A DNA stretch of 64,000 nucleotides, taken from an uncultured Verrucomicrobiae bacterium (GTDB lineage Bacteria; Verrucomicrobiota; Verrucomicrobiia; Limisphaerales; Palsa-1400). This document shows, one piece after another, positions 8,937-21,140 of the stretch (position 1 is the first letter of the stretch; every line of letters starts with the position of its first letter). The notes under the pieces are model-generated. The model was not told where the DNA came from and made no database searches. It saw only the letters and a program-made list of their open reading frames with translations. Position numbers and translations under genes: made by a program. The DNA lies in the NCBI GenBank assembly GCA_963825315.1, contig CAWGST010000001.1:24778-88777 (forward strand). The letters are read 5' to 3'.

Positions 8937-11633
8937 ATGCGGCGACAATATCCGTTTCATTTGATCGAGCCAAAATGGCAGCGTTTTTGGGAGGCGCGGC
9001 AAACTTTTCGCGCCTGGAACCCCGGCGATTCCATTCCGCGGGAACATCCGTTCGCCAGGCGGCACGGCCTGCGGGGGAAGGTCCCGGCGGGACAGCTTCC
9101 GCGCAAGTTTTATATTCTCGACATGTTCCCCTATCCCTCCGGGGCGGGCCTGCATGTGGGCCATCCGGAAGGATACACCGCCACCGATATTTTGGCGCGC
9201 TATCGCCGCGCCCTGGGTTTCAATGTGCTGCATCCGATGGGTTGGGACGCCTTTGGACTGCCGGCCGAGCAATACGCCATCCGCACGGGACAGCATCCGC
9301 GGAAAACGACTGAAGAGAACATCGGCGTCTTCAAGCGCCAGATAAAATCGCTCGGCTTCAGTTATGATTGGAGCCGGGAAATCGATACGACAGACCCGAA
9401 ATATTGCAAATGGACGCAGTGGATTTTTCTTAAACTTTACCATTCGTGGTTCAATCCCGCCACGGCCAAAGCCGAGCCGATCCACACGCTGCCTTTGCCC
9501 GAGGGGTGTGATTCCGAGGAAGCGCAGCGGTCCTGGCGCGACGGCAAACGCCTGGCTTACGTGGCCGAGGCGCCGGTCTGGTGGTGCGAAGAACTCGGCA
9601 CCGTGCTCGCCAATGAAGAAGTGATCGATGGCAAAAGCGAGGTCGGCGGATTCCCCGTCGCGCGCAAACCCATGCGGCAATGGATGCTCCGCATCACAGC
9701 TTATGCGGAACGATTGCTGGCGGGGTTGGCAAAAATCGACTGGAGCGATTCGCTCAAGGAAATGCAGCGCAATTGGATTGGCCGCAGCGAAGGCGCGGAG
9801 GTTCAGTTTCACTTGGAGGATGATTCGGCGGCAATCCCGGTCTTTACGACCCGGCCCGACACTTTGTTCGGGGCCACTTACATGGTGCTTTCGCCCGACC
9901 ACAAACTGGTTGATGCCATCACCGCCCCGGCACAAAGAGCCGCCGTGGCTTCCTACCAGGCTGAAGTCGCCACCAAAAGCGACTTGGAGCGCACGGAAAC
10001 GGCCAGGGAAAAAACCGGTGTTTTCACCGGCGCTTTCGCGATTAATCCGGCCAACCGGGAAAGAATTCCGATCTGGATCGCGGATTACGTCCTCGCCACC
10101 TACGGCACCGGAGCCATCATGGCGGTGCCGGGCCACGATGAGCGCGACCTGGAATTTGCCCGGCAGTTCAAGCTGCCCATTCGCGTCGTGGTGCAAGCCC
10201 CTGAAGAACGGGACTCAATTGGTTTCACCGGCGATGGCACGAGCGTAAATTCGGATTTTATCACGGGCCTGCCCACGCCCGAGGCCAAAGAAAAAATCAC
10301 ACGCTGGCTGGAAGAACGAAAGTTGGGCCGCAAGACTGTCAATTACAAGCTGCGCGACTGGCTCTTCAGCCGGCAGCGCTATTGGGGCGAGCCGTTTCCG
10401 ATTATCTGGAAAGTGGACGCCGCCGGACACCTCCACCATGAGGCGCTGCCCGAATCTGCTCTTCCGGTGCAACCGCCGGACCTGACCGATTTCAAGCCCA
10501 CAGCCTCGGGAGAACCTCCTTTGGCGCGGGCCACGCAATGGGTCAATCTGCCTGACGGTTCCCGGCGCGAAACCAACACCATGCCGCAATGGGCCGGCAG
10601 TTGCTGGTATTACCTCCGCTTCATTGACGCCCGGAATGATAGCGCCCTTTGCGGGCCGGAACCGGAACATTATTGGATGGGGACAGGCAGCCCCGACGCC
10701 ACGCCGGGGGTTGATTTATACGTCGGCGGAATCGAACATGCCGTGCTGCATCTTCTCTATGCCCGATTCTGGCACAATGTCCTTTTCGATTTGGGCTGCG
10801 TCAGCACGCCCGAACCGTTTGCCAAACTGGTCAACCAGGGGCTGATCCTCGGCCAGGACGGGCAAAAAATGTCAAAGTCCCGCGGCAACGTCGTCAATCC
10901 GGACGATATTTTGGGCGAATACGGCGCGGACGCGTTTCGGCTCTACGAGATGTTCATGGGGCCGTTGGAAATGGTCAAGCCGTGGAACACCAAGGGCGTG
11001 GAAGGGGTGTATCGTTTTCTGGGGCGGGTCTGGCGATTGTTCGTGGACGAAAAGAGTGAAACAGAATTCGAGCAAAACCAGGCGGCAAGGGGAACGGAGG
11101 AGACCGGGGCGCTGGACCACATTCGACTGAGCGCGGCGATTCAGGACTGCGCCGCCACGCCCGCCCAGCTCAAAACGCTCCACGCCTGCATCAAGAAAGT
11201 CACCGAAGACCTCGACCACTTTGGCTTCAACACCGCCATTTCGGCCTTGATGATTTTTGTCAATGAAGCGATTGCCTGGGAAACCAAACCAAAGGGGATT
11301 TTGCGCGACTTCCTGATTCTGCTGCACCCGTTCGCTCCGCATCTGGCCGAGGAATTGCACGCCAAACTTTGCGCGCCAGGGGACGCCGCCGCGACGCTGG
11401 CCTATGAACCGTGGCCGAAATTCGACGCGCAACTCCTGGTGGAAGCGACCGTGGAAATACCGGTGCAGGTCAACGGCAAATTGCGGGACCGGATTGTCGT
11501 TCCGGCGGAAGCTTCCCCGGCCCAGATCGAAGCGGCGGCCCTGGCCAGCGACAAGGTCAAGGCGTTCATTGACGGGAAGGCGGTCAAAAAGGTCATTGTC
11601 ATTCCGAAAAGGCTGGTCAACATCGTGGTTTGA
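8937..11633 (+). CDS. leuS: Leucine--tRNA ligase
   Basis: [14 protein letters not shown] (HIGH motif), KMSKS, editing domain TTRPDT, C-terminal VQVNGKLR. Confidence 0.98.
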
Positions 11634-11668
11634 TCTTCCCGGTTTGGCAATTTTAGCCAGGATCACAA

Positions 11669-12195
11669 GATTGATAGATAGTCCGGAAAATCGGCAACAC
11701 GGTAACAAGTGTTGATAGTCAACGACTTAGCCGGTAACACGATCAGCTACAAACCAGTAACATGTTACTGCTTTTCGTTTTTCGCTGCCTCGTGAGCTGT
11801 ATAAAATTAGCCATCTGAAGAAGAAACGGCAAAAACGGGGGTCAAAATCATAAAATTGCCGCGAAGCATGGCCAGAAAGTTCATATTGATAGATAGAGGT
11901 TCGGAAAATCGGCAACACGGCAACAAGCCTTATTTTACAAGGGTTTCGTTGAGCTTTTCGGCTGGCAACACAGCGGCAACGGTTGGCAACATGTTGCTGG
12001 AGGCCACAGATTGGCGCAGATGGGCACAGATTTCCAGGTCTGGGATTAAGATTAGGATTAGGATTACGATTAGGATCGCAAGAAACGGAAGATTGATATG
12101 TGGGTCCGGAAAATCGGCAACACGGCAACAAATGTTGATAGTCAACGACTTAGCTGGCAACAAAATCGGCAACAGACCAGCAACAAGCCCGTTAC
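11669..12195 (+). repeat. Three copies (11669-11770, 11885-11999, 12091-12195) of a ~105-115-bp dispersed element containing GGCAACA iterons
   Basis: Shared head ATTGATA...GGAAAATCGGCAACACGG(C/T)AACAA followed by further GGCAACA/GGTAACA units. A fourth copy lies at 39506-39622. Confidence 0.85.
12044..12076 (+). repeat. (GATTAR)n hexamer microsatellite
   Basis: gattaagattaggattaggattacgattaggat. Same family at 38411-38490, 39272-39304 and 51976-52048. Confidence 0.85.
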
Positions 12196-12404
12196 ATTAA
12201 CGATAAAGCTGGCCTGGATTGGTTGGACGGTTTAATGACCATCGGTGTTTTAAGAATTTGACCACGGATTTCAGGATGGCCTGACAGATCATGGCAAACC
12301 GGGTAAGCCAACCACACCGCATGAAGAAGGCCAACCAGACTTTTTAACCACGAAAGACTCGAAAAACGCGAGCCTTGAAAGTAATGCGGTGGTGAAAATG
12401 GGGC

Positions 12405-12433
12405 TTGGCTGGACGTTTTGTTTCGGCTACAAT
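12405..12433 (+). promoter_or_regulatory. Putative sigma70 promoter of the cas9-cas1-cas2 operon
   Basis: TTGGCT(12405-12410)-N17-TACAAT(12428-12433), 34 nt upstream of the cas9 ATG. An 8-bp inverted repeat CGTTTTGT/ACAAAACG straddles the -10 box. Confidence 0.55.
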
Positions 12434-12467
12434 CTTGCCCGCTACACAAAACGAAGGGAAAAAGAAG

Positions 12468-15400
12468 ATGAATGCGGAAACTTCAAAGGCTGGCAAAACC
12501 GTCTGGGCTTTCGACTTGGGCAAAGGCTCCATCGGCGAAGCGGTGCGTTGCGGCGACAAATTTCTGCACAAAGCCTCGCTGCTCATCCCCGCCGAGTTTG
12601 CGGAAACCAAAACCGCCGCTGGACGACGCCGTATGTGGCGCACGCGGCAGGCACACAAGGCGCGCGAGCAATGGCTAGACGAGGTGATGCGCCAAGCGGG
12701 GATTGAAGTTCTCCATGGGCGCAATTACGACAAAATGGGTAAATGGAAAGTTGGCGAACCGGCGGATGAACGGCTGGAACGCGAGTTTGCCGAACCGGGC
12801 GACCCCACTTGTTATACGTCTTGCTTGCTTCGCATCAAACTTTTGCGCGGTGAAAAGCTTGAACCGTGGCAGATCTACAAGGCGCTTCATTCAGCGATCC
12901 AACGACGCGGTTACGATCCGAACATTCCTTGGAAAAACCGCAGCCAGCGCAAAGCCAAACCAGGAGATGCCAACGATGACGACGCCGGAACAGAAGCGCG
13001 GATGCAACAATTTGAGAAAGAATTGGAAGCAATGTCGCCCGGCAAGGATGAATATAAATTCTCGTGCTATTTTGATGCTTGGAAAATGGGATTGTGGAAT
13101 CCAGATAAACCAAAGGAATTAAAAGATCGCATTGATTGCCGCACGGAAAGCACCCGAAATCAAATTGTTCCTCGCAAATTGGTGGACAAGGAAATCCGGG
13201 CATTGGCCGAAGCTGCCGCGAAGCATTATCCCAAACTCAAAGGCCAACCGGACTATCTGCTCTATGGCCCGGCAAAAACTCCTTATGCCTCGTTCGACGC
13301 CAAGCTTCGAAAGCAGCACCACTTGAAGGAAGGCGGCGCAAATGACTGGCAAGGTGTGCTTGGCCAGAAGATTCCAAAATTCGAGAATCGGATTCTAAAT
13401 GATTGTGCCCTTATCCCTCGCCTTTATGTCTGCCGCAATCCAAGCCGCGAGGATTACAAGGATTTATCAGAGGACAAGCTTCTTCCTGCACAGGTTACGT
13501 TCCTGATGAAGTTGAAGAATATGCGCGTTGAGAAAAAGACGCCGCGTCAGCAATGCGGCCTGGCGGCAACCCAAATCAAAGAGATTTTTGACGAATACAA
13601 TCCAAAGCGAAAATATCATCTAACGCCCACGCAATGGAAGAATTGGTGCCTACACTTCGACGTTCTCCCGATTACAGACGCGGGCGAAAAAGGCAAAGAC
13701 GCGCCTAACGAAATCGATGGTCAAAAGAAGAAACAGGAAAGTGATGTCATCGAAGGGCCGACCGATAGCGGGCGCAGCAGGTTTTCGCGTCCAGCTTTAA
13801 GAATCCTCAGGGCATTGATTTTGAACGGGGAAAAACCATCAGCAATGCACAAAAAGTTGGTGGCGCGTGATTCGGCTCTGCTGGCGCAAATTGGCATGGA
13901 CATTCTGGACAAGCCGCCAATCAAAGAAAAGAAAGACGCGGCTGGGAATGTTGTTCGTAACTACGTTGAGCAACCGCGTCCTTGGCTTCTCGTTTCCGAT
14001 TTGTCGTTTCTTCTCGTCATGCGGAAAACGGGCGCGAAAGACGATTCATGGGAAGATTTGTTCATCCCAAATCAGCGTTTAGACCAAGTCGTTCAGGAAA
14101 TTTCCATTGCCGGTCAAAGCGGTAACGCACAAGCGCAGCGGAAACAGAGAGATAAAGCCATCCAAAAACTTATCGGGTCGCAAAATGATCCTAAAGTCCG
14201 CCATCGGCTCGCAACGTTTTGGGAACGGCTACAACTTCTGGAAGAAGCTCATGGCGTGCCGGACCAAGTTGTTTTGGAATTCATCCGGGAAGACTTCATG
14301 GGTGAGAAAGCAAAGAAGAAGTTGAAGGAGTTCCAAGACAAGCGCGCCACCGACCGAAAGAAAGCACGCGCGTATGGTGGTTTGAAATTTGAACTCTACG
14401 AGGCGCAAGGCGGCCTGTGCCTTTATGGAAAACAAGTAATCAAGGACGGTAAGTGCATCGCTCTTGAGAATGGCTTGCCATTGCCTAATACGGCGGGTTG
14501 GGATGAATTGGTCATTGACCACATTGTACCTCGCGAAGCTCCGTACAACGGGCCGGACTCGATGGTGAACTATGTTCTTACGACTCCAGAAGCCAACAAT
14601 GCAAAGGGTAAACGCACTCCGTTTGATTGGTTTCACCAAGATCGTTTGGAGCAATGGGACAGTTACAAAAACTTTGTCACACCGAAAATTGGGACGCTCG
14701 GCGGCAAGAAAGTTCAGCTTTTGACACGCGCTGATGCCGCAGCACTTGTCACGAAATATACTTCGCTGGCGGAAACCGCCTGGATTTCCAAGTTGGCTCA
14801 AACTTTGATTCGCTTGCACTTTGGCTGGCCTTTGGAACACGAACGCGGCAAGGAACGTTTAACTATTGTTCCCGGAGGATTGACCGGGCGGATCCGCAGG
14901 AAATATCTGTTGAATACGTTGCTGGATGAACGATTCAAGAATTTGCCGACCAATCAAATCCAACCGGAGAATGAGGAGGCGGCGGAAAAAGATCGCACGG
15001 ACAACCGACACCACGCGCTGGACGCGATGCTGATCAGTTTTTTCCCCGACTGGATGCGAAATCCGCACAAAGACGATTTCTTTCGTTTCCCCGTTCCTCT
15101 CGATAAGCCGTTTCCAGCAAAGCGCAACAAGCACGCCGTTCGCGAGTATTTCAGACGGTTGCTCGATGAGGTTTTGCCAGAAAACCTGTTTTTGGAAAAA
15201 GCAAAGCTCGCCGAAACCGCGTACGGACGCTCATTTCAGCCCGAAGAAGTCAGCGCAGATGGCGACTCTGTAAAATATAGAACCAGGAAGATAGCGTTGG
15301 CAGACTTGGCTTATCTGAAAGGCAAAGCAGATGCAGTCGCTTACGATCACAAGCAAGCACGTCGCGTGGCAAGCGGGATCGTAAATCAAGAGATTCGCAA

Positions 15401-16529
15401 GCATGTGTGCGAGTTTCTAAAATCCAATCCGTCGGAAGCTGACTGGCAAGCGTTTTGTAAAAAATTTGAGGACGAAGCTCAAAAGGCGAAACGCACCAAT
15501 GCAATCAAAGTTGAAGTTCGTCTCGTCGTTGAAATCCGCACCCATCGCAAGTCAGTGAAAGAAATGGCATACGAAAAAGGCAATTCGCGGGAATACGATG
15601 TCGAATACGCGCGTGGGAACGTGGATGAAATCGTGGAGGATTTGCCGGAGCAAATATCCATCAAGGCTAAACTCCGCGAATTCTTTGCAGGTAATCCAAC
15701 CGAGAATCAGTGGAAAGCATTTCATGAATCTCTGAAGCCGATTGACCGTTGCAAATTAAAAGCCGAGCCGGACGAAACGGGCAAGAAAACCAAGGCTCGC
15801 ACGGTGAAGTTTATGGTTTTCGCTCATCGCCCAATCCCGATGAAATTCAACCTTGAAAAGGTTCACGGGCAAATTGACAAGATTTGCGACGAGTACATCC
15901 GCCAACGGCTACGCGCCTTCGTAAATCAATCTCCGCCGCCAGATCAAACTGGTTGGAACACGTTCTGCGAATCATTTCGCCAAGAACGAAGAGACGACAC
16001 CGGGAATCTGCTCAAAGACGTTGCGGGAAATGTGCTTTATGGGGTGCGCATCAAGAAAGTCCGGGTGATAGATGGAGGCCCTGACGAGTTTAAGGATTTC
16101 TCCAAAGACGGAACTGGCACGTTCTACAAAAACAAGAAGGAGCACAAAGGACAGTTCGTTTTCCTCGTGGATGACGGCTCATCTAACGGCAAAGTCAATG
16201 CGCGCCCCGTTTATGTCTTCGAATCTGTGCGGAAAGTTCGAAGCGAAGTCGAAGCTATAGACAAGCTAAAACGCGTCGTCGGATATTTTCAATCCGGTTG
16301 CGCCATCGAAATCAGTCAGCCCTTGTTAAAGGAGGGCTACGGCTTTGTCGTCTTGAAAGATGAAAAGAAAAAGCGAGAAAAGGCAGAATCGCCTCTCGCT
16401 CCGGGCAAATTCTTATTGAAGACAATTATCACCAAATCGCGCGCCGTTGAAATGGAAACGACCGCCGGCATTGTCATCAATTCCACTCTCGATTCTCTGA
16501 TTAAGGCGGGATTGAAGCGAGTTTCATGA
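12468..16529 (+). CDS. cas9: Type II (II-C-like) CRISPR endonuclease Cas9, ~1353 aa, catalytic residues intact
   Basis: RuvC-I VWAFDLGKGSIG, Arg-rich bridge helix RRRMWRTRQAHKARE, QRRGY, RuvC-II VVLEFIRE, HNH IDHIVP...DSMVNYVL...ANNAKGKRTPFDW, RuvC-III RHHALDAML. Followed by cas1, cas2 and an array. ATG 12468 has a purine-rich RBS. Confidence 0.96.
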   Translation: MNAETSKAGKTVWAFDLGKGSIGEAVRCGDKFLHKASLLIPAEFAETKTAAGRRRMWRTRQAHKAREQWLDEVMRQAGIEVLHGRNYDKMGKWKVGEPADERLEREFAEPGDPTCYTSCLLRIKLLRGEKLEPWQIYKALHSAIQRRGYDPNIPWKNRSQRKAKPGDANDDDAGTEARMQQFEKELEAMSPGKDEYKFSCYFDAWKMGLWNPDKPKELKDRIDCRTESTRNQIVPRKLVDKEIRALAEAAAKHYPKLKGQPDYLLYGPAKTPYASFDAKLRKQHHLKEGGANDWQGVLGQKIPKFENRILNDCALIPRLYVCRNPSREDYKDLSEDKLLPAQVTFLMKLKNMRVEKKTPRQQCGLAATQIKEIFDEYNPKRKYHLTPTQWKNWCLHFDVLPITDAGEKGKDAPNEIDGQKKKQESDVIEGPTDSGRSRFSRPALRILRALILNGEKPSAMHKKLVARDSALLAQIGMDILDKPPIKEKKDAAGNVVRNYVEQPRPWLLVSDLSFLLVMRKTGAKDDSWEDLFIPNQRLDQVVQEISIAGQSGNAQAQRKQRDKAIQKLIGSQNDPKVRHRLATFWERLQLLEEAHGVPDQVVLEFIREDFMGEKAKKKLKEFQDKRATDRKKARAYGGLKFELYEAQGGLCLYGKQVIKDGKCIALENGLPLPNTAGWDELVIDHIVPREAPYNGPDSMVNYVLTTPEANNAKGKRTPFDWFHQDRLEQWDSYKNFVTPKIGTLGGKKVQLLTRADAAALVTKYTSLAETAWISKLAQTLIRLHFGWPLEHERGKERLTIVPGGLTGRIRRKYLLNTLLDERFKNLPTNQIQPENEEAAEKDRTDNRHHALDAMLISFFPDWMRNPHKDDFFRFPVPLDKPFPAKRNKHAVREYFRRLLDEVLPENLFLEKAKLAETAYGRSFQPEEVSADGDSVKYRTRKIALADLAYLKGKADAVAYDHKQARRVASGIVNQEIRKHVCEFLKSNPSEADWQAFCKKFEDEAQKAKRTNAIKVEVRLVVEIRTHRKSVKEMAYEKGNSREYDVEYARGNVDEIVEDLPEQISIKAKLREFFAGNPTENQWKAFHESLKPIDRCKLKAEPDETGKKTKARTVKFMVFAHRPIPMKFNLEKVHGQIDKICDEYIRQRLRAFVNQSPPPDQTGWNTFCESFRQERRDDTGNLLKDVAGNVLYGVRIKKVRVIDGGPDEFKDFSKDGTGTFYKNKKEHKGQFVFLVDDGSSNGKVNARPVYVFESVRKVRSEVEAIDKLKRVVGYFQSGCAIEISQPLLKEGYGFVVLKDEKKKREKAESPLAPGKFLLKTIITKSRAVEMETTAGIVINSTLDSLIKAGLKRVS

Positions 16530-16551
16530 AGCCGGAAACCATCTTGAAATT

Positions 16552-17436
16552 ATGAGCCACCACATTCTTCATGTTCTCAAACACGGTTGCGTGTTGTCCA
16601 AAGACCGGGGCTTTATCGTTTGTCGCGGCGAGGACAAAAGCGAGAACCGCATTCCGCATGAGGATTTGCGGGCGGTTATCATCGCGGCGCGCGGCGTCAC
16701 GCTGACGTCCAGTTTCATTTCCGCCGTGCTGGAAACGGACGGGATCATTTTGCATTGCAATGAAAGTTACCGGCCTTGCGGTGTCACCGCGCCATTGGGC
16801 CGGGTGATTGATAATAAGGCTTTTTTGCATCAAGCGGAACGTCCGGTGCGGTTGAACAATCGCCTCTGGCAGCATCTCATTCGGGGAAAAACGCTGAACC
16901 AGTTGAAGGTGCTGAAAAAGCGGCAGTTGAAATCGCCGCATCTCGAACTGGCGGTGAAGAAAGATATTTTCGACGAGGGCAATTGCGCCCGGCGTTATTG
17001 GCAGTTGTATTTTCCCTCGATTGGCTGGGTTTCCTCGTCACGCGACCGAAAGCAGGACAACGCGCCCAATCAGATGTTGAATTACGGTTACGCCGTGCTT
17101 GGCGCGCTTTGCCATCGCGGTTTGTTGATTCATGGATTATCGCCGTTGCTCGGCGTGAAACATACGACGCGCTATCACGCCGACCCCCTGGTTTATGACA
17201 TTATGGAGCCGTACCGCCCGGCGGTGGATTTGATGATGGCGGAATTCATGGTGGGCGAGGATATCAGCATGAAGGCGTGGTGCAAAAAGGTCGGCAACGA
17301 ACTGCGCGAGCAGCGGGTCGAGCATGACCGATATTCGCTCAAGCTCATGGATGCCATTGACGCCTCGGCTTCTTCGCTGGCCCGGAGTTATGCGGAAAAA
17401 TCGTCCGAACTGTTTTGGGTGCCAGAGTTGTCGTGA
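16552..17436 (+). CDS. cas1: Type II CRISPR-associated endonuclease Cas1
   Basis: EGNCARRYW, NQMLNYGYAVL, GVKH, LVYDIMEPYRP. Confidence 0.96.
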   Translation: MSHHILHVLKHGCVLSKDRGFIVCRGEDKSENRIPHEDLRAVIIAARGVTLTSSFISAVLETDGIILHCNESYRPCGVTAPLGRVIDNKAFLHQAERPVRLNNRLWQHLIRGKTLNQLKVLKKRQLKSPHLELAVKKDIFDEGNCARRYWQLYFPSIGWVSSSRDRKQDNAPNQMLNYGYAVLGALCHRGLLIHGLSPLLGVKHTTRYHADPLVYDIMEPYRPAVDLMMAEFMVGEDISMKAWCKKVGNELREQRVEHDRYSLKLMDAIDASASSLARSYAEKSSELFWVPELS

Positions 17437-17792
17437 GCCAAACCGAGAAAAAAAGTCCGTTTCGTATGGGGTGGATATTGGCCATGTTTGACCTGCCGGT
17501 GATGACGGACAAAGAGCGGAAGGCCGCCACCCGATTTCGGAATGACCTGCTCGATAATGGTTATTTGATGATCCAGTTTTCAGTGTATGCCCGCCCGTGC
17601 GTCAGTTACGAACAAATGGACACGCACATCGCCCGCATGAAAGGGCTGATTCCGACGGCGGGAAATGTTCGGCTGATGTTTATGACGGATGAACAATGGA
17701 AAAAAAGTTATACGGTGATCGGTGAAAATTACAGAGATGACAAACGCGCCAAAGACCCGACGATTCCCAGCCAAGTGGACTTTTGGGAGTAA
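17433..17792 (+). CDS. cas2: CRISPR-associated endoribonuclease Cas2
   Basis: WILAMFDLPV...FRNDLLDNGYLMIQFSVYAR. GTG start overlaps the cas1 TGA (GTGA); alternative start at 17466. No csn2 or cas4 present. Confidence 0.95.
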   Translation: MSQTEKKSPFRMGWILAMFDLPVMTDKERKAATRFRNDLLDNGYLMIQFSVYARPCVSYEQMDTHIARMKGLIPTAGNVRLMFMTDEQWKKSYTVIGENYRDDKRAKDPTIPSQVDFWE

Positions 17793-17793
17793 C

Positions 17794-17834
17794 GGCGGCG
17801 TTGAAACGTGCTATGCAGTGGTTTCAACGCCGCC
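17794..17834. terminator. 14-bp perfect GC-rich hairpin right after the cas2 stop (tracrRNA nexus/3' stem and/or bidirectional terminator)
   Basis: GGCGGCGTTGAAAC(17794-17807)/GTTTCAACGCCGCC(17821-17834). No clear U-tract. Confidence 0.6.
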
Positions 17835-17871
17835 TAATCAGTTAAGACTTCACCCCCCGGAGAAGTCGCAT
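17794..17871 (-). ncRNA. Putative tracrRNA (3' end undefined)
   Basis: Minus strand reads AUGCGACUUCUCCGGGGGGUGAAGUCUUAAC-UGAUUA-GGCGGCGUUGAAAC...GUUUCAACGCCGCC. There are 23 contiguous nt (17846-17868) complementary to the crRNA repeat, followed by a 14-bp hairpin. Confidence 0.8.
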
Positions 17872-17874
17872 CAA

Positions 17875-17902
17875 ATCATACCGCACCAGGCACTTCCGTC
17901 AA
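17875..17902 (-). promoter_or_regulatory. Putative tracrRNA promoter
   Basis: Minus strand TTGACG-N16-TATGAT, with the predicted start just before the anti-repeat core. Confidence 0.65.
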
Positions 17903-17906
17903 GCCC

Positions 17907-19523
17907 ATTATAGCCGACTTCTCCGGGGGGTGAAGTCAAAACGGTTGTGGTGTCAACAAATGTCACCGTGACATTATAGCCGACTTCTCCGGGGGGTGAA
18001 GTCAAAACTGGGCACGTTCTTTTGGTGCTTTAGCTGCAATTATAGCCGACTTCTCCGGGGGGTGAAGTCAAAACTATGGCGCTACCGGACGTAGTTCGGT
18101 ATCGATTATAGCCGACTTCTCCGGGGGGTGAAGTCAAAACAACTGGGCCATTGTGAAAGTCACCAACGCCATTATAGCCGACTTCTCCGGGGGGTGAAGT
18201 CAAAACACTGGGCAATTGTGAAAGTCACCAACGCCTATTATAGCCGACTTCTCCGGGGGGTGAAGTCAAAACTAGAACCTTTCGTTTACCGAACTAAATT
18301 AATTATAGCCGACTTCTCCGGGGGGTGAAGTCAAAACACCAAAGTTTCGAGGAGCTGCGGATGTGGATTATAGCCGACTTCTCCGGGGGGTGAAGTCAAA
18401 ACCCGCCCGTCGCGTCGTAGGGCATGATCTTGATTATAGCCGACTTCTCCGGGGGGTGAAGTCAAAACCCGTGCCGATGAATTACCTGCTTGTCTGCCAT
18501 TATAGCCGACTTCTCCGGGGGGTGAAGTCAAAACCTGCGCCAGTGTAATGCCCTGCCCCTCGCCATTATAGCCGACTTCTCCGGGGGGTGAAGTCAAAAC
18601 ACGCGATTTGATTTGATCGGCGTTTGGGCCATTATAGCCGACTTCTCCGGGGGGTGAAGTCAAAACTGATGTAGAGTGCTTGTGCTAAGCTTTCGTATTA
18701 TAGCCGACTTCTCCGGGGGGTGAAGTCAAAACAAGAAGTTGTTGCAGCTGGTTGCGTTTCCTATTATAGCCGACTTCTCCGGGGGGTGAAGTCAAAACAC
18801 ATCCTCCTCGTCGTTAAAAAGTTCACCAATTATAGCCGACTTCTCCGGGGGGTGAAGTCAAAACCTTAACCTCTGTCACCTTCGCGGTGTGGAAATTATA
18901 GCCGACTTCTCCGGGGGGTGAAGTCAAAACACAAGATCGCGGCAGACAAGCTCGTTGAGCATTATAGCCGACTTCTCCGGGGGGTGAAGTCAAAACAACG
19001 ACACCCAGCGCCAGATGATCATTGACATTATAGCCGACTTCTCCGGGGGGTGAAGTCAAAACTTTTCAGTCATGCTGCCTCCGCGCGTTCCATTATAGCC
19101 GACTTCTCCGGGGGGTGAAGTCAAAACTGGAGGCGGCGAAGGGCATCCAGGCCGGTCATTATAGCCGACTTCTCCGGGGGGTGAAGTCAAAACAGTCGTC
19201 GGTGTGCAGAACGGACATTCCGGATTATAGCCGACTTCTCCGGGGGGTGAAGTCAAAACCCTGGTCATTTCCTCAATCAATTTATAACCATTATAGCCGA
19301 CTTCTCCGGGGGGTGAAGTCAAAACGCGCTGGGTGTCTTCAAGCACTTTATAATTATTATAGCCGACTTCTCCGGGGGGTGAAGTCAAAACCGAAATCCG
19401 CTCACGCAACAGCATTTGAAGATTATAGCCGACTTCTCCGGGGGGTGAAGTCAAAACCACAGCAGCTCATCCACCTTCAGCCCCTTCATTATAGCCGACT
19501 TCTCCGGGGGGTGAAGTCAAAAC
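17907..19523 (-). CRISPR. CRISPR array with 25 identical 36-nt repeats (crRNA sense GTTTTGACTTCACCCCCCGGAGAAGTCGGCTATAAT) and 24 spacers of 29-30 nt
   Basis: Repeats counted directly from 17907 to 19488. Orientation inferred from the 5' GTTTT end, the 3' TATAAT (-10 box in each repeat, as in II-C arrays) and the anti-repeat strand. Confidence 0.98.
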
Positions 19524-19605
19524 GGGCGGCGGGTGAATCGCTACGCATTACAATCAGGTTGTTTTTGCATTCTCACCAGCGTAGCGATTCACCCGCCGCC
19601 CGTTT
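19520..19605. other. Perfect 27-bp inverted repeat (32-nt loop) abutting the distal CRISPR repeat
   Basis: AAACGGGCGGCGGGTGAATCGCTACGC(19520-19546) / GCGTAGCGATTCACCCGCCGCCCGTTT(19579-19605). Confidence 0.9.
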
Positions 19606-19792
19606 CAAATTTCCCCATCCGAAAACTGAAAACATAAGAAGCCCTCTATAAAAAATAATTTTCGCGTAATTCGGCTGTTTCGCGGTTAAGAATCCTGATT
19701 GGCACTCCTCATGCCGAAGAAAGGCTGAAGCAAAATTCGTGCGCTTTGTCTTTCGTGGTGCCGTGAATCGTCGACCGCCGCTTCCGGGCAAA

Positions 19793-20033
19793 GGTGTGTT
19801 TGGCGAGACGCCAAACACGGCGCGCGGGACGCACGCGCTCCCCGTGCTGGATCGAGTTGGGGTTCGACGGAATGATTCCCTCACCCGGCCTGCGGCCACC
19901 CTCTCCCCGCTTCGCGGGGCGAGGGAATCGGACTCTGCACGGACGGACAAAGAGCGACAAATCCGTCTCCGTTGCGCTTTGGCGCGACAAATGACCAGAT
20001 CGAGTTGGGGTTCGACGGAGTCTCACCCTACCG
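19793..20033. repeat. Cluster of REP-like palindromic elements with a 22-bp direct repeat
   Basis: GTGTTTGGCGAGACGCCAAACAC...GCGCGGGACGCACGCGCTCCCC; CCCTCACCCGGCC...CCCTCTCCCCGCTTCGCGGGGCGAGGG; GATCGAGTTGGGGTTCGACGGA at 19850-19871 and 19998-20019, the second copy running on to CCCTACC. Confidence 0.65.
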
Positions 20034-20042
20034 GTGGTCGGC

Positions 20043-21140
20043 TCATGTCGAGTGATCAATGGCCGGCTGCTGCTGAGTCAGGCAATGCAGCGTGCCAAAG
20101 CCCAGCACTAAATCCACCGCGTGTATCCCCACCACAGGCCGGTCCCGGAACAAATCGCCCAGGATGCCCAGGGCGATACGGTCGTTCGGGTCGTTGAAGG
20201 TGGGCACAATGACCGCCGCATTGCTGATGTAAAAATTGGCGTAGCTGGCCGGCAAACGGTAGCCGTCGTAAAAAATCGGCGCGGGCATGGGCAGCGCCAC
20301 TACTTGGATTTTTGAGCCGTCTTCCAAGCGCAGGCCCTCCAGGCGTTCCCGGTTCCCGGCCAGCGGCTGGTAATTGACGTCCTTGGGATTGCTCTCCTGC
20401 GCCAGCACCACGGTGGCCGGGTTGACAAACCGGCAGATGTCATCCACATGGCCGTGGGTATCGTCGCCCACCACCCCGCCCCCCAGCCAAAGCACATTGG
20501 TGACGCCGAGATAGCGCTGGAGCACCAATTCAATTTCCTTCCGGCCCAGACCGGGATTGCGCGCCTGGGTTTTCTGATCCAGCAGGCACTCCTCGGTCGT
20601 CAGGAGAGTGCCCCGGCCATTGACATCAATGGCGCCGCCTTCGATGACAAAATCCCGGCCCTGGCACTGGGCGTTGAACAGACGTTTGCCCAAGCGCCCG
20701 GCCGCAATTTCAGGCACCTTGCGGTCTTGCTGCCAATCCGGGTATTTGGCCCAGGCATTGAAATGAAAATGAACAAACGCGGTTTCCGGATTCTTTCCGC
20801 CGCGCCGGACACAGATCGGCCCGCTGTCGCGGGTCCAGCCGCGGTTGGTGGGGTGGATGATGAATTGGACGCGGGAGACATCGGCGTGGGCCTGGGTCAG
20901 GATGCGGCGGGCCGCGGTTTCGCCGGTCTTGGAATTGACGAACAGCCGGACAATTTCGCCGGGGGCGATTTTGCGGACCATTTCGCCGTAAACCCAGCGA
21001 ATGGCGCCCAGTTTGCGGGGCCAGTCGGCGGGATTGTGCGGCCAAGCCAGCCAGGTGGCTTCATGCCGCTCCCATTCGGCGGGCATGGCAAATCCAAGGG
21101 AGGCCGGAGTGCGTGAAGTCGTGGATTTTTTTCCAGTCAT
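20043..21140 (-). CDS. aguA: Agmatine deiminase family protein
   Basis: MPAEWERH, WTRDSGP, EGGAIDVNG, DDTHGHVDD, ASYANFYI, GFGTLHCLTQQQP. Start uncertain (21143/21140/21086). Confidence 0.92.
   Translation of the reverse strand: MTGKKSTTSRTPASLGFAMPAEWERHEATWLAWPHNPADWPRKLGAIRWVYGEMVRKIAPGEIVRLFVNSKTGETAARRILTQAHADVSRVQFIIHPTNRGWTRDSGPICVRRGGKNPETAFVHFHFNAWAKYPDWQQDRKVPEIAAGRLGKRLFNAQCQGRDFVIEGGAIDVNGRGTLLTTEECLLDQKTQARNPGLGRKEIELVLQRYLGVTNVLWLGGGVVGDDTHGHVDDICRFVNPATVVLAQESNPKDVNYQPLAGNRERLEGLRLEDGSKIQVVALPMPAPIFYDGYRLPASYANFYISNAAVIVPTFNDPNDRIALGILGDLFRDRPVVGIHAVDLVLGFGTLHCLTQQQPAIDHST

Follow-up and report, generated by a model that had tools for sequence, protein, structure and literature searches.

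A probable tracrRNA gene between cas2 and the array of a type II-C CRISPR locus with a divergent Cas9

[quoted passage not shown] Between cas2 and the array, on the minus strand, lies an element that is very probably the gene of a tracrRNA (trans-activating CRISPR RNA) in a Campylobacter-type II-C layout, judging from sequence comparison with related loci. The predicted RNA would be about 80 nt long, with 28 nt of well-paired anti-repeat connected through 6 nt to a single long stem-loop; transcribed from its own promoter it would span 17790–17868 (minus strand), its start and end being placed from the -10 box and the hairpin. Array and tracrRNA would be read in one direction, convergent with the cas genes. 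This gives a well-supported tracrRNA for a Cas9 clade that has no solved structure and no close characterised relative, and its annotation (strand, anti-repeat, bulge, stem-loop and probable promoters) is a basis for guide-RNA design.

Identity and strand of the tracrRNA

The anti-repeat (17841–17876, minus strand) is an inverted copy of the 36-nt repeat, identical to it at 30 of 36 positions over its full length. In the inner 28 nt (17841–17868) 26 of 28 positions match, with a predicted duplex energy of -53.5 kcal/mol, and in the outer 8 nt (17869–17876) 4 of 8 match, counted by eye. Throughout the 5.46-Mb genome the repeat core has no other forward-oriented match, and the stretch of hairpin, anti-repeat and linker has no second full-length copy. 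Six bases from the anti-repeat, towards cas2, stands a stem-loop (17794–17834, minus strand; 14-nt arms at 17794–17807 and 17821–17834) with a 14-bp stem, a 3-bp inner stem and a conserved loop, abutting the cas2 stop codon; it would form the tracrRNA's 3' end. On the other side, repeat 1 starts at 17907, a start-to-start distance of 66 nt that leaves a 30-nt gap (17877–17906), here called the linker. The inverted copy, its distance, the gap and the hairpin had all been described in an earlier sequence-only reading of this DNA, and each was found as described.

Searches with Cas9 recovered 38 loci for comparison, 14 from genomes and 24 from metagenomes, and a covariance model of the RNA (R1) found two more (L064, L065) in 150 other genomes of the phylum. 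Twenty-one of the 38 are distinct and have DNA after cas2. Six duplicate others (L019, L022, L023, L024, L026, L033), and 11 end no more than 1.4 kb after cas9 or at the anti-repeat and give no distance from anti-repeat to repeat 1 (L005, L011, L013, L020, L025, L027, L029, L034, L036, L037, L038). The 21, the window, L064 and L065 make up 24 distinct loci, several of which are close kin and not independent; judging from record titles, the relatives are mostly in Verrucomicrobiota-like metagenome bins. The order cas2, hairpin, inverted copy beginning GTTAAG or GTTGAG, short linker and array is kept in all 24.

The proposal that the inverted copy is the anti-repeat of a tracrRNA gains support from two kinds of change among these loci. 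Compensatory changes occur in 12 of the 15 predicted hairpin pairs (minus strand, 19 loci aligned), and the loop bases are invariant across loci with 32–81% Cas9 identity, suggesting that the hairpin is more than a mere terminator, which would not need loop conservation. The anti-repeat and the repeat also change together in the 21 loci compared. Twenty of these, with anti-repeat copies that begin GTTAAG, have a U-U/U-U internal loop at positions 4–5 of the repeat; in the exception, L021, the anti-repeat has GTTGAG opposite a GTTCTG repeat. Most of the 19 aligned loci have a T-run behind the hairpin on the minus strand, and there the stem-loop would double as an intrinsic terminator; the window has no such run, because the cas2 stop codon abuts the stem.

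The same pairs indicate the strand. The hairpin alignment holds 13 G:U or U:G cells on the minus strand and no A:C cell, and the other 9 unpaired cells are not transitions; since such G:U pairs would be A:C mismatches on the opposite strand, the RNA is read from the minus strand. Wobble pairs between anti-repeat and repeat number 31 in the minus sense versus 13 in the plus sense, in an ungapped count over loci that are kin. The 26 promoter-like sites in the repeats and the linker are all on the minus strand (shuffle mean 1.9), and a consensus scan of 17300–19900 found no plus-strand promoter-like site. These patterns agree with the minus-strand reading of array and tracrRNA proposed earlier. 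A tracrRNA on the minus strand implies minus-strand CRISPR RNAs (crRNAs) as well, in agreement with the promoter-like sites inside the repeats.

The linker (minus strand) is the probable leader-repeat junction and would hold the tracrRNA promoter. Its promoter-like site, TTGACG and TATGAT separated by 16 bases (17902–17875, minus strand), has 10 of 12 consensus matches, with the -35 at 17902–17897 and the -10 at 17880–17875 overlapping the first 2 nt of the anti-repeat copy. Promoter-like sites were scored by consensus, with promoter rules assumed for this phylum. None of the four terminator-like sites in the scan, a number at shuffle level, lies in the linker, so that both the promoter and the lack of a terminator described earlier were recovered. 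The motif AGGnTTGnCnGAA adjoins repeat 1 in most of 22 loci, and a -35-like TTGnCn stands 4–5 nt from repeat 1 in most relatives.

The array (17907–19523, minus strand) has 25 identical 36-nt repeats and 24 spacers, with a period of 66 nt in 21 cases and 65 nt in three. All 25 repeats contain TTCACC and TATAAT separated by 16 bases on the minus strand (a consensus match only) as putative promoters. Repeat-embedded promoters with an array read towards the cas genes are a trait of the Neisseria and Campylobacter group, not of every type II-C system. The site in repeat 1, the cas-proximal repeat (17907–17942, minus strand), lies at 17934–17907 and points into the linker and the tracrRNA; that in repeat 2 (17973–18008, minus strand) lies at 18000–17973, with its -10 TATAAT at 17978–17973. 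Between them is spacer 1 (17943–17972, minus strand), which is probably the newest spacer if the polarity indicated by related loci applies. Transcripts would start about 6–7 nt inside each spacer from the -10 sites of the repeats and run towards cas2, and the tracrRNA would be supplied from its own linker promoter, from repeat 1, as a longer form beginning near 17900, and from all other upstream repeat promoters.

The core of the repeat is palindromic (GACTTC, ten bases, GAAGTC; for example 17915–17936), with a counterpart in the anti-repeat at 17846–17867, and the repeat part of a crRNA and a free anti-repeat could therefore each fold on themselves. To our knowledge, a palindromic core is unusual among type II repeats. 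An Rfam search of 11000–21000 (E up to 1) returned no tracrRNA or omega-RNA family; matches of microRNA models to two long inverted repeats scored far below the gathering scores and were read as spurious.

Spacing between anti-repeat and array

The sequence-only reading attached significance to the distance between anti-repeat and repeat 1 in the window, which equals one array period, with a gap of one spacer length. Measured from the start of the anti-repeat to the start of repeat 1 (by eye in L008, L010, L016 and L032), this distance ranges from 51 to 105 nt among the 24 loci. It is 51 nt in L032, 63 in L030, 64 in L064, 65 in L008 and L065, 66 in the window and L007, 67 in L031, 68 in L009, 69 in L018, 70 in L002 and L028, 71 in L010, L012, L016, L017 and L035, 73 in L004 and L015, 75 in L021, 76 in L001, 84 in L003, 94 in L006 and 105 in L014. 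The range 63–76 nt covers 19 of the 24 loci, and two loci at 66 nt are about the expectation of an even spread over that range. The two are also not unrelated, as the linkers of the window and L007 are homologous (18 of 30 positions identical, by eye). The five measurable loci with 70–81% Cas9 identity have distances of 76 (L001), 73 (L015), 71 (L017), 70 (L002) and 69 nt (L018).

Variable spacing in homologous loci had been named beforehand as a refutation, and with exactly 66 nt in 2 of 24 loci the register loses the significance given to it; on sequence grounds it appears to be a chance-level coincidence of linker length, a tempting regularity that can now be removed from the argument. The conserved trait would instead be compactness, together with the motif beside repeat 1 and its -35-like TTGnCn. 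A lower bound near one spacer length is expected because a promoter needs about 35 nt from the -35 to the start, and a register that varies across loci leaves no geometric constraint on the loop visible.

Two relatives have features of their own. In L007 (11644–12061) the repeat, the anti-repeat and the start of the linker are near-identical to those of the window and the spacing is likewise 66 nt, while the Cas9 is only 47–51% identical, a pattern that hints at exchange of the adaptation and RNA module between Cas9 lineages. In L008 (13391–13460, and likewise in its duplicate L033) a second tracrRNA hairpin and the start of an anti-repeat lie just past the degenerate distal end of the array, and this second copy is closer to the L009 version than to the first copy in L008 itself.

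Probable acquisition end, read-through and a possible single-guide RNA

New spacers probably enter at the tracr-adjacent, cas-proximal end, as had been proposed. Degenerate terminal repeats occur at the cas-distal end of L006, L008, L012, L014 and L032, and L002 and L019 have the distal spacer and flank in common, with one extra spacer beside the linker in L002. The difference between L002 and L019 could equally come from a deletion in L019, and we infer the acquisition end from these patterns taken together. Spacer 1 varies among related loci, and no window spacer is common to any relative. In Neisseria, new spacers appear at the leader end, and no crRNA arises from the repeat beside the leader (PMC12477760).

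A spacer 1 transcript from the -10 box of repeat 2 would start near 17966. In the predicted RNA from 17966 to 17780, repeat 1 pairs with the anti-repeat across the linker, which would form the loop of this fold in cis, and the 3' hairpin stays intact (minimum free energy -93.7 kcal/mol, z -9.3). The fold follows from the inverted repeat by construction and is not independent evidence, but no barrier to read-through from repeat 2 into the tracrRNA was found, and the fusion is predicted to fold as the sequence-only reading proposed. With repeat promoters upstream and no terminator between, the array would be read towards and into the tracrRNA, making both this read-through and a cis-folded crRNA-tracrRNA precursor likely. 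Such co-transcripts, with repeat 1 pairing with the anti-repeat in cis, would most likely be precursors, or one route among several by which the usual dual guide is made.

Both the layout and the transcription of tracrRNA from upstream repeat promoters have already been reported in Campylobacter jejuni (PMC3656092, PMC4607530). Primer extension there assigned most tracrRNA species to upstream repeat promoters, and longer transcripts accumulated in the absence of RNase III (PMC3656092); that the long forms build up only upon RNase III deletion implies that the co-transcripts act as precursors in that organism.

The sequence-only reading went further and proposed that the newest spacer may be made as such a fusion, with priority over older spacers. 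On this view the repeat 2 transcript, about 175–185 nt in length and made up of some 24 nt of spacer 1 followed by repeat 1, the linker, the anti-repeat and the hairpin, would be a processing-free single guide that loads Cas9 in cis. We consider this unlikely, and both the expression and the activity of such a guide would be hypothetical here. The way from repeat 1 to the anti-repeat is free of terminator-like sites and the tracrRNA-array layout is kept in 24 of 24 loci, but a separate promoter-like site stands at a conserved position before the tracrRNA, an argument for its being supplied mainly in trans. The predicted fusion does fold into the repeat 1:anti-repeat duplex and the hairpin, next to what is probably the acquisition end, yet the 66-nt register, which might have reflected loop geometry, is not conserved. 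Co-transcripts do exist in C. jejuni (PMC3656092), where their accumulation only without RNase III marks them as precursors. The RNase III gene of the window's own genome (contig 6, about 137525–138185; L066 1138–1923, minus strand) looks frameshifted, matching its family model in two pieces, with the catalytic part in one frame, the double-strand RNA-binding part in another and the switch in a GC-rich run. This split would favour an unprocessed guide, but it may be either a real frameshift or an assembly error.

A broader form of the idea, in which the tracrRNA gene of this Cas9 clade is fixed to the end where spacers are acquired and each new spacer is at once a ready-made single guide, seems slightly less probable still. 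If it were true, the promoter of the following repeat would determine the 5' end of the guide and the terminator of the tracrRNA its 3' end, without cutting by RNase III, and the newest memory would get first access to Cas9, echoing the contiguous guide and scaffold of IscB omega-RNAs; if the RNase III split is real, the single-guide form would be the rule for spacer 1. Liao reportedly described in 2022 a prioritisation of the newest spacer in type II-A systems, by another RNA route. On array-terminal crRNA-tracrRNA fusions acting as guides, the literature search returned only the C. jejuni co-transcripts, the long tracrRNA form (tracr-L) and viral single guide RNAs (sgRNAs); the natural single guides among these, tracr-L and viral sgRNAs, carry fixed guides (10.1101/2020.05.21.102756, 10.64898/2026.06.01.729453). 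The cis-guide idea is coherent and partly anticipated, and its role in priority is unproven. What the 24-locus comparison does suggest is that a short homologous linker joins the probable spacer-entry end, the tracrRNA promoter and the read-through path, and these joined roles make cis use of the tracrRNA by the terminal crRNA testable in this clade and in Campylobacter.

Origin of the tracrRNA and weighing of the evidence

Recruitment of a repeat as anti-repeat is an established scenario (PMC6546382, PMC3737331). The linker, the anti-repeat with its bulge and the hairpin are homologous across loci with 32–81% Cas9 identity, which makes the linker an old leader and not a recently trapped spacer; since the whole unit is common to the clade, the recruitment event would be old as well. 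The linker would thus be an ancient leader, homologous between loci, in which the site of integration and the promoter of the tracrRNA meet. The register of one genome says nothing of how the tracrRNA arose.

The earlier reading had suggested that the tracrRNA arose by inversion of a repeat in place. That the register is a relic of such an inversion within this lineage, which trapped a spacer as the linker, is very improbable. The exact match of distance to one period and of gap to one spacer length is found in the window and L007, and the distances of other relatives cluster just above one period, but the measurable loci with 70–81% Cas9 identity stand at 69–76 nt and not at 66. Any inversion must predate the whole clade, given the homology of linker, anti-repeat and hairpin; moreover, the outer 8 nt of the copy match poorly, and nothing in a repeat unit corresponds to the hairpin. 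A recent inversion in place is therefore unsupported, and of the roles proposed for the 30-nt segment those of promoter and leader are probable, the leader being old, while its derivation from a recently trapped spacer is not supported.

Least credible of all is that the hairpin is merely a cas operon terminator and the inverted copy array-end debris, or that array and tracrRNA are read from the plus strand, for the hairpin does begin 2 nt past the cas2 stop codon and a T-rich run follows it on the plus strand as well in L008 and L009, but its loop is invariant, its G:U pairs are legal on the minus strand alone, the anti-repeat co-varies with the repeat, the plus strand of 17300–19900 is without promoter-like sites, and a plus-strand reading would put the anti-repeat 3' of the hairpin, an order we know from no Cas9 tracrRNA.

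Some points nevertheless weigh against the reading of the element as a minus-strand tracrRNA gene with an old leader, or limit it. The -10 hexamer is poorly kept in some relatives, such as L007, and the promoter rules of the phylum are assumed. Termination may be inefficient in the window, where the hairpin has no T-run, and the RNA might continue into cas2 in antisense; the starts, the ends and the read-through of the tracrRNA are all predictions. The clustering of the spacing near one period (19 of 24 loci within 63–76 nt) may reflect an ancient origin from an inverted repeat unit, and the RNase III split, if real, would leave a cis fusion uncut and give it more weight.

Comparison with known systems

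The locus resembles that of C. jejuni in its minimal cas9-cas1-cas2 content, in its 36-nt repeats that end in a -10 box, from which crRNAs start inside the spacers in C. jejuni (PMC3656092) and would do so here, and, as in Helicobacter too, in a tracrRNA that lies downstream of the repeats in the sense of crRNA transcription and has a -10 of its own (PMC4607530). The latter source agrees with the statement of the sequence-only reading that a tracrRNA lies downstream of the array in C. jejuni. Differences from C. jejuni are the Cas9 of the window, which has 1353 aa and is very distant, the palindromic repeat core, the single long stem-loop of the tracrRNA and the Verrucomicrobiota-like host. 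Neisseria meningitidis II-C loci have repeat-embedded promoters and crRNAs that start within spacers (PMC12477760), as is predicted for the window. In Neisseria the tracrRNA is not known to follow the array; if it indeed lies elsewhere, no read-through product could link it to a crRNA.

Tracr-L of Streptococcus pyogenes and related co-transcripts of small CRISPR-Cas-associated RNA (scaRNA) and tracrRNA likewise place a repeat-like segment and an anti-repeat on one RNA, which folds into a single guide (10.1101/2020.05.21.102756, 10.64898/2026.06.01.729453). Tracr-L, however, is a repressor whose fixed short guide is directed against the cas9 promoter, whereas here the guide would be the last-acquired spacer. 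In IscB omega-RNA (HEARO RNA), guide and scaffold are also contiguous on one RNA (PMC9755519); unlike it, the system in the window comes with an array, with genes for adaptation and with a predicted promoter that serves the tracrRNA alone, and 11000–21000 has no Rfam match to that family.

Cas genes and classification

The cas genes comprise cas9 (12468–16529, plus strand; 1353 aa from the ATG at 12468), cas1 (16552–17436, plus strand; TIGR03639 cas1_NMENI at 147 bits, cut-off 120, and Pfam Cas_Cas1) and cas2 (17415–17792, plus strand; TIGR01573 at 57.5 bits and Pfam CRISPR_Cas2). Cas9 was identified by TIGR01865 (181 bits, cut-off 100), by the NCBIfam Cas9d model NF049971 (974 bits, cut-off 375, in three stretches) and by the Pfam nuclease domains RuvC_III and HNH_4, as expected of a Cas9 effector. 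A profile of 13 Cas9 relatives searched against PDB best matched Cas9 chains of 1082–1092 residues (E 2e-27), the top matches carrying only the name 'CRISPR-associated endonuclease Cas9'; we take these chains to be Neisseria meningitidis Cas9. A PDB search with the single Cas9 sequence of the window matched HNH domains alone.

No csn2 and no cas4 were found beside the locus among open reading frames (ORFs) of at least 60 aa, about 3.5 kb to each side. Because cas9, cas1 and cas2 are present and csn2 and cas4 were not found, the locus is filed as type II-C by gene content, with a divergent Cas9. Type II-D (Cas9d) was rejected despite the name of the NCBIfam model, as the protein is large (1353 aa) and there is no adjoining cas4; in the 2025 classification, type II-D is described as having small proteins and an adaptation module with cas4 (PMC12669027). 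On either side of the locus stand a gene for leucyl-tRNA synthetase and one like those for agmatine deiminase, with a deoxyhypusine synthase-like gene also nearby, and neighbouring ORFs without a family match overlap these flanking genes or sit on the opposite strand.

Cas9 of the window and of its relatives at 70–81% identity is about 280 aa longer than that of relatives at 45–50% identity, with search match lengths of 4.06 kb for the former type and about 3.1–3.2 kb for the latter. The extra part lies at about 15100–15900 of the window (residues about 880–1150) and contains three similar segments of about 90 aa, as judged by eye.

Spacers and repeated elements

The 247 unique spacers of all arrays, compared with the genome of the window and with L001–L038, gave one near-full match, that of window spacer 10 (18535–18564), which matches contig 1 of its own genome (1968424–1968453) at 29 of 30 positions. 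The match lies inside an 816-aa ORF without a Pfam match, a possible self-target or integrated-element target. As a single protospacer it cannot define a protospacer-adjacent motif (PAM), nor the strand from the side on which the PAM lies; the other 13 spacer matches outside arrays span only 17–22 nt. The whole array had no match in phage records at E up to 1. Spacers 4 (18141–18170) and 5 (18207–18236) have almost the same sequence, shifted by one base and differing at one position, and look like two separate acquisitions from the same site of related invaders; the 21-nt stretch common to both had 0 matches in viral contigs.

Between the leucyl-tRNA synthetase gene and cas9, at 11672–12195, a dispersed repeat of about 106 nt occurs three times. 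At least 40 copies, with 76–100% identity, are present in the genome, suggesting a miniature mobile element or a family like the repetitive extragenic palindromic (REP) sequences.

At the far end of the array a palindromic element of about 120 nt (19519–19640; arms of 23 bp at 19524–19546 and 19579–19601, 32-nt loop) touches the last repeat, outside the tracrRNA unit. It was considered as a second anti-repeat and rejected, being a genomic element in three copies with 100, 93 and 84% identity; the other two lie on contig 1 near 1153587–1153744 and on contig 5 near 611994–612108. To the left of the contig 1 copy stand the final 25 nt of the CRISPR repeat, and about 330–650 nt upstream of that copy are homologues of window segments 11681–11818 (81%) and 11907–11991 (99%), which lie upstream of cas9, so that this site resembles the CRISPR locus in a collapsed or empty state. 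In L002/L019 and in L012, too, the distal repeat is adjoined by palindromes, which are unrelated.

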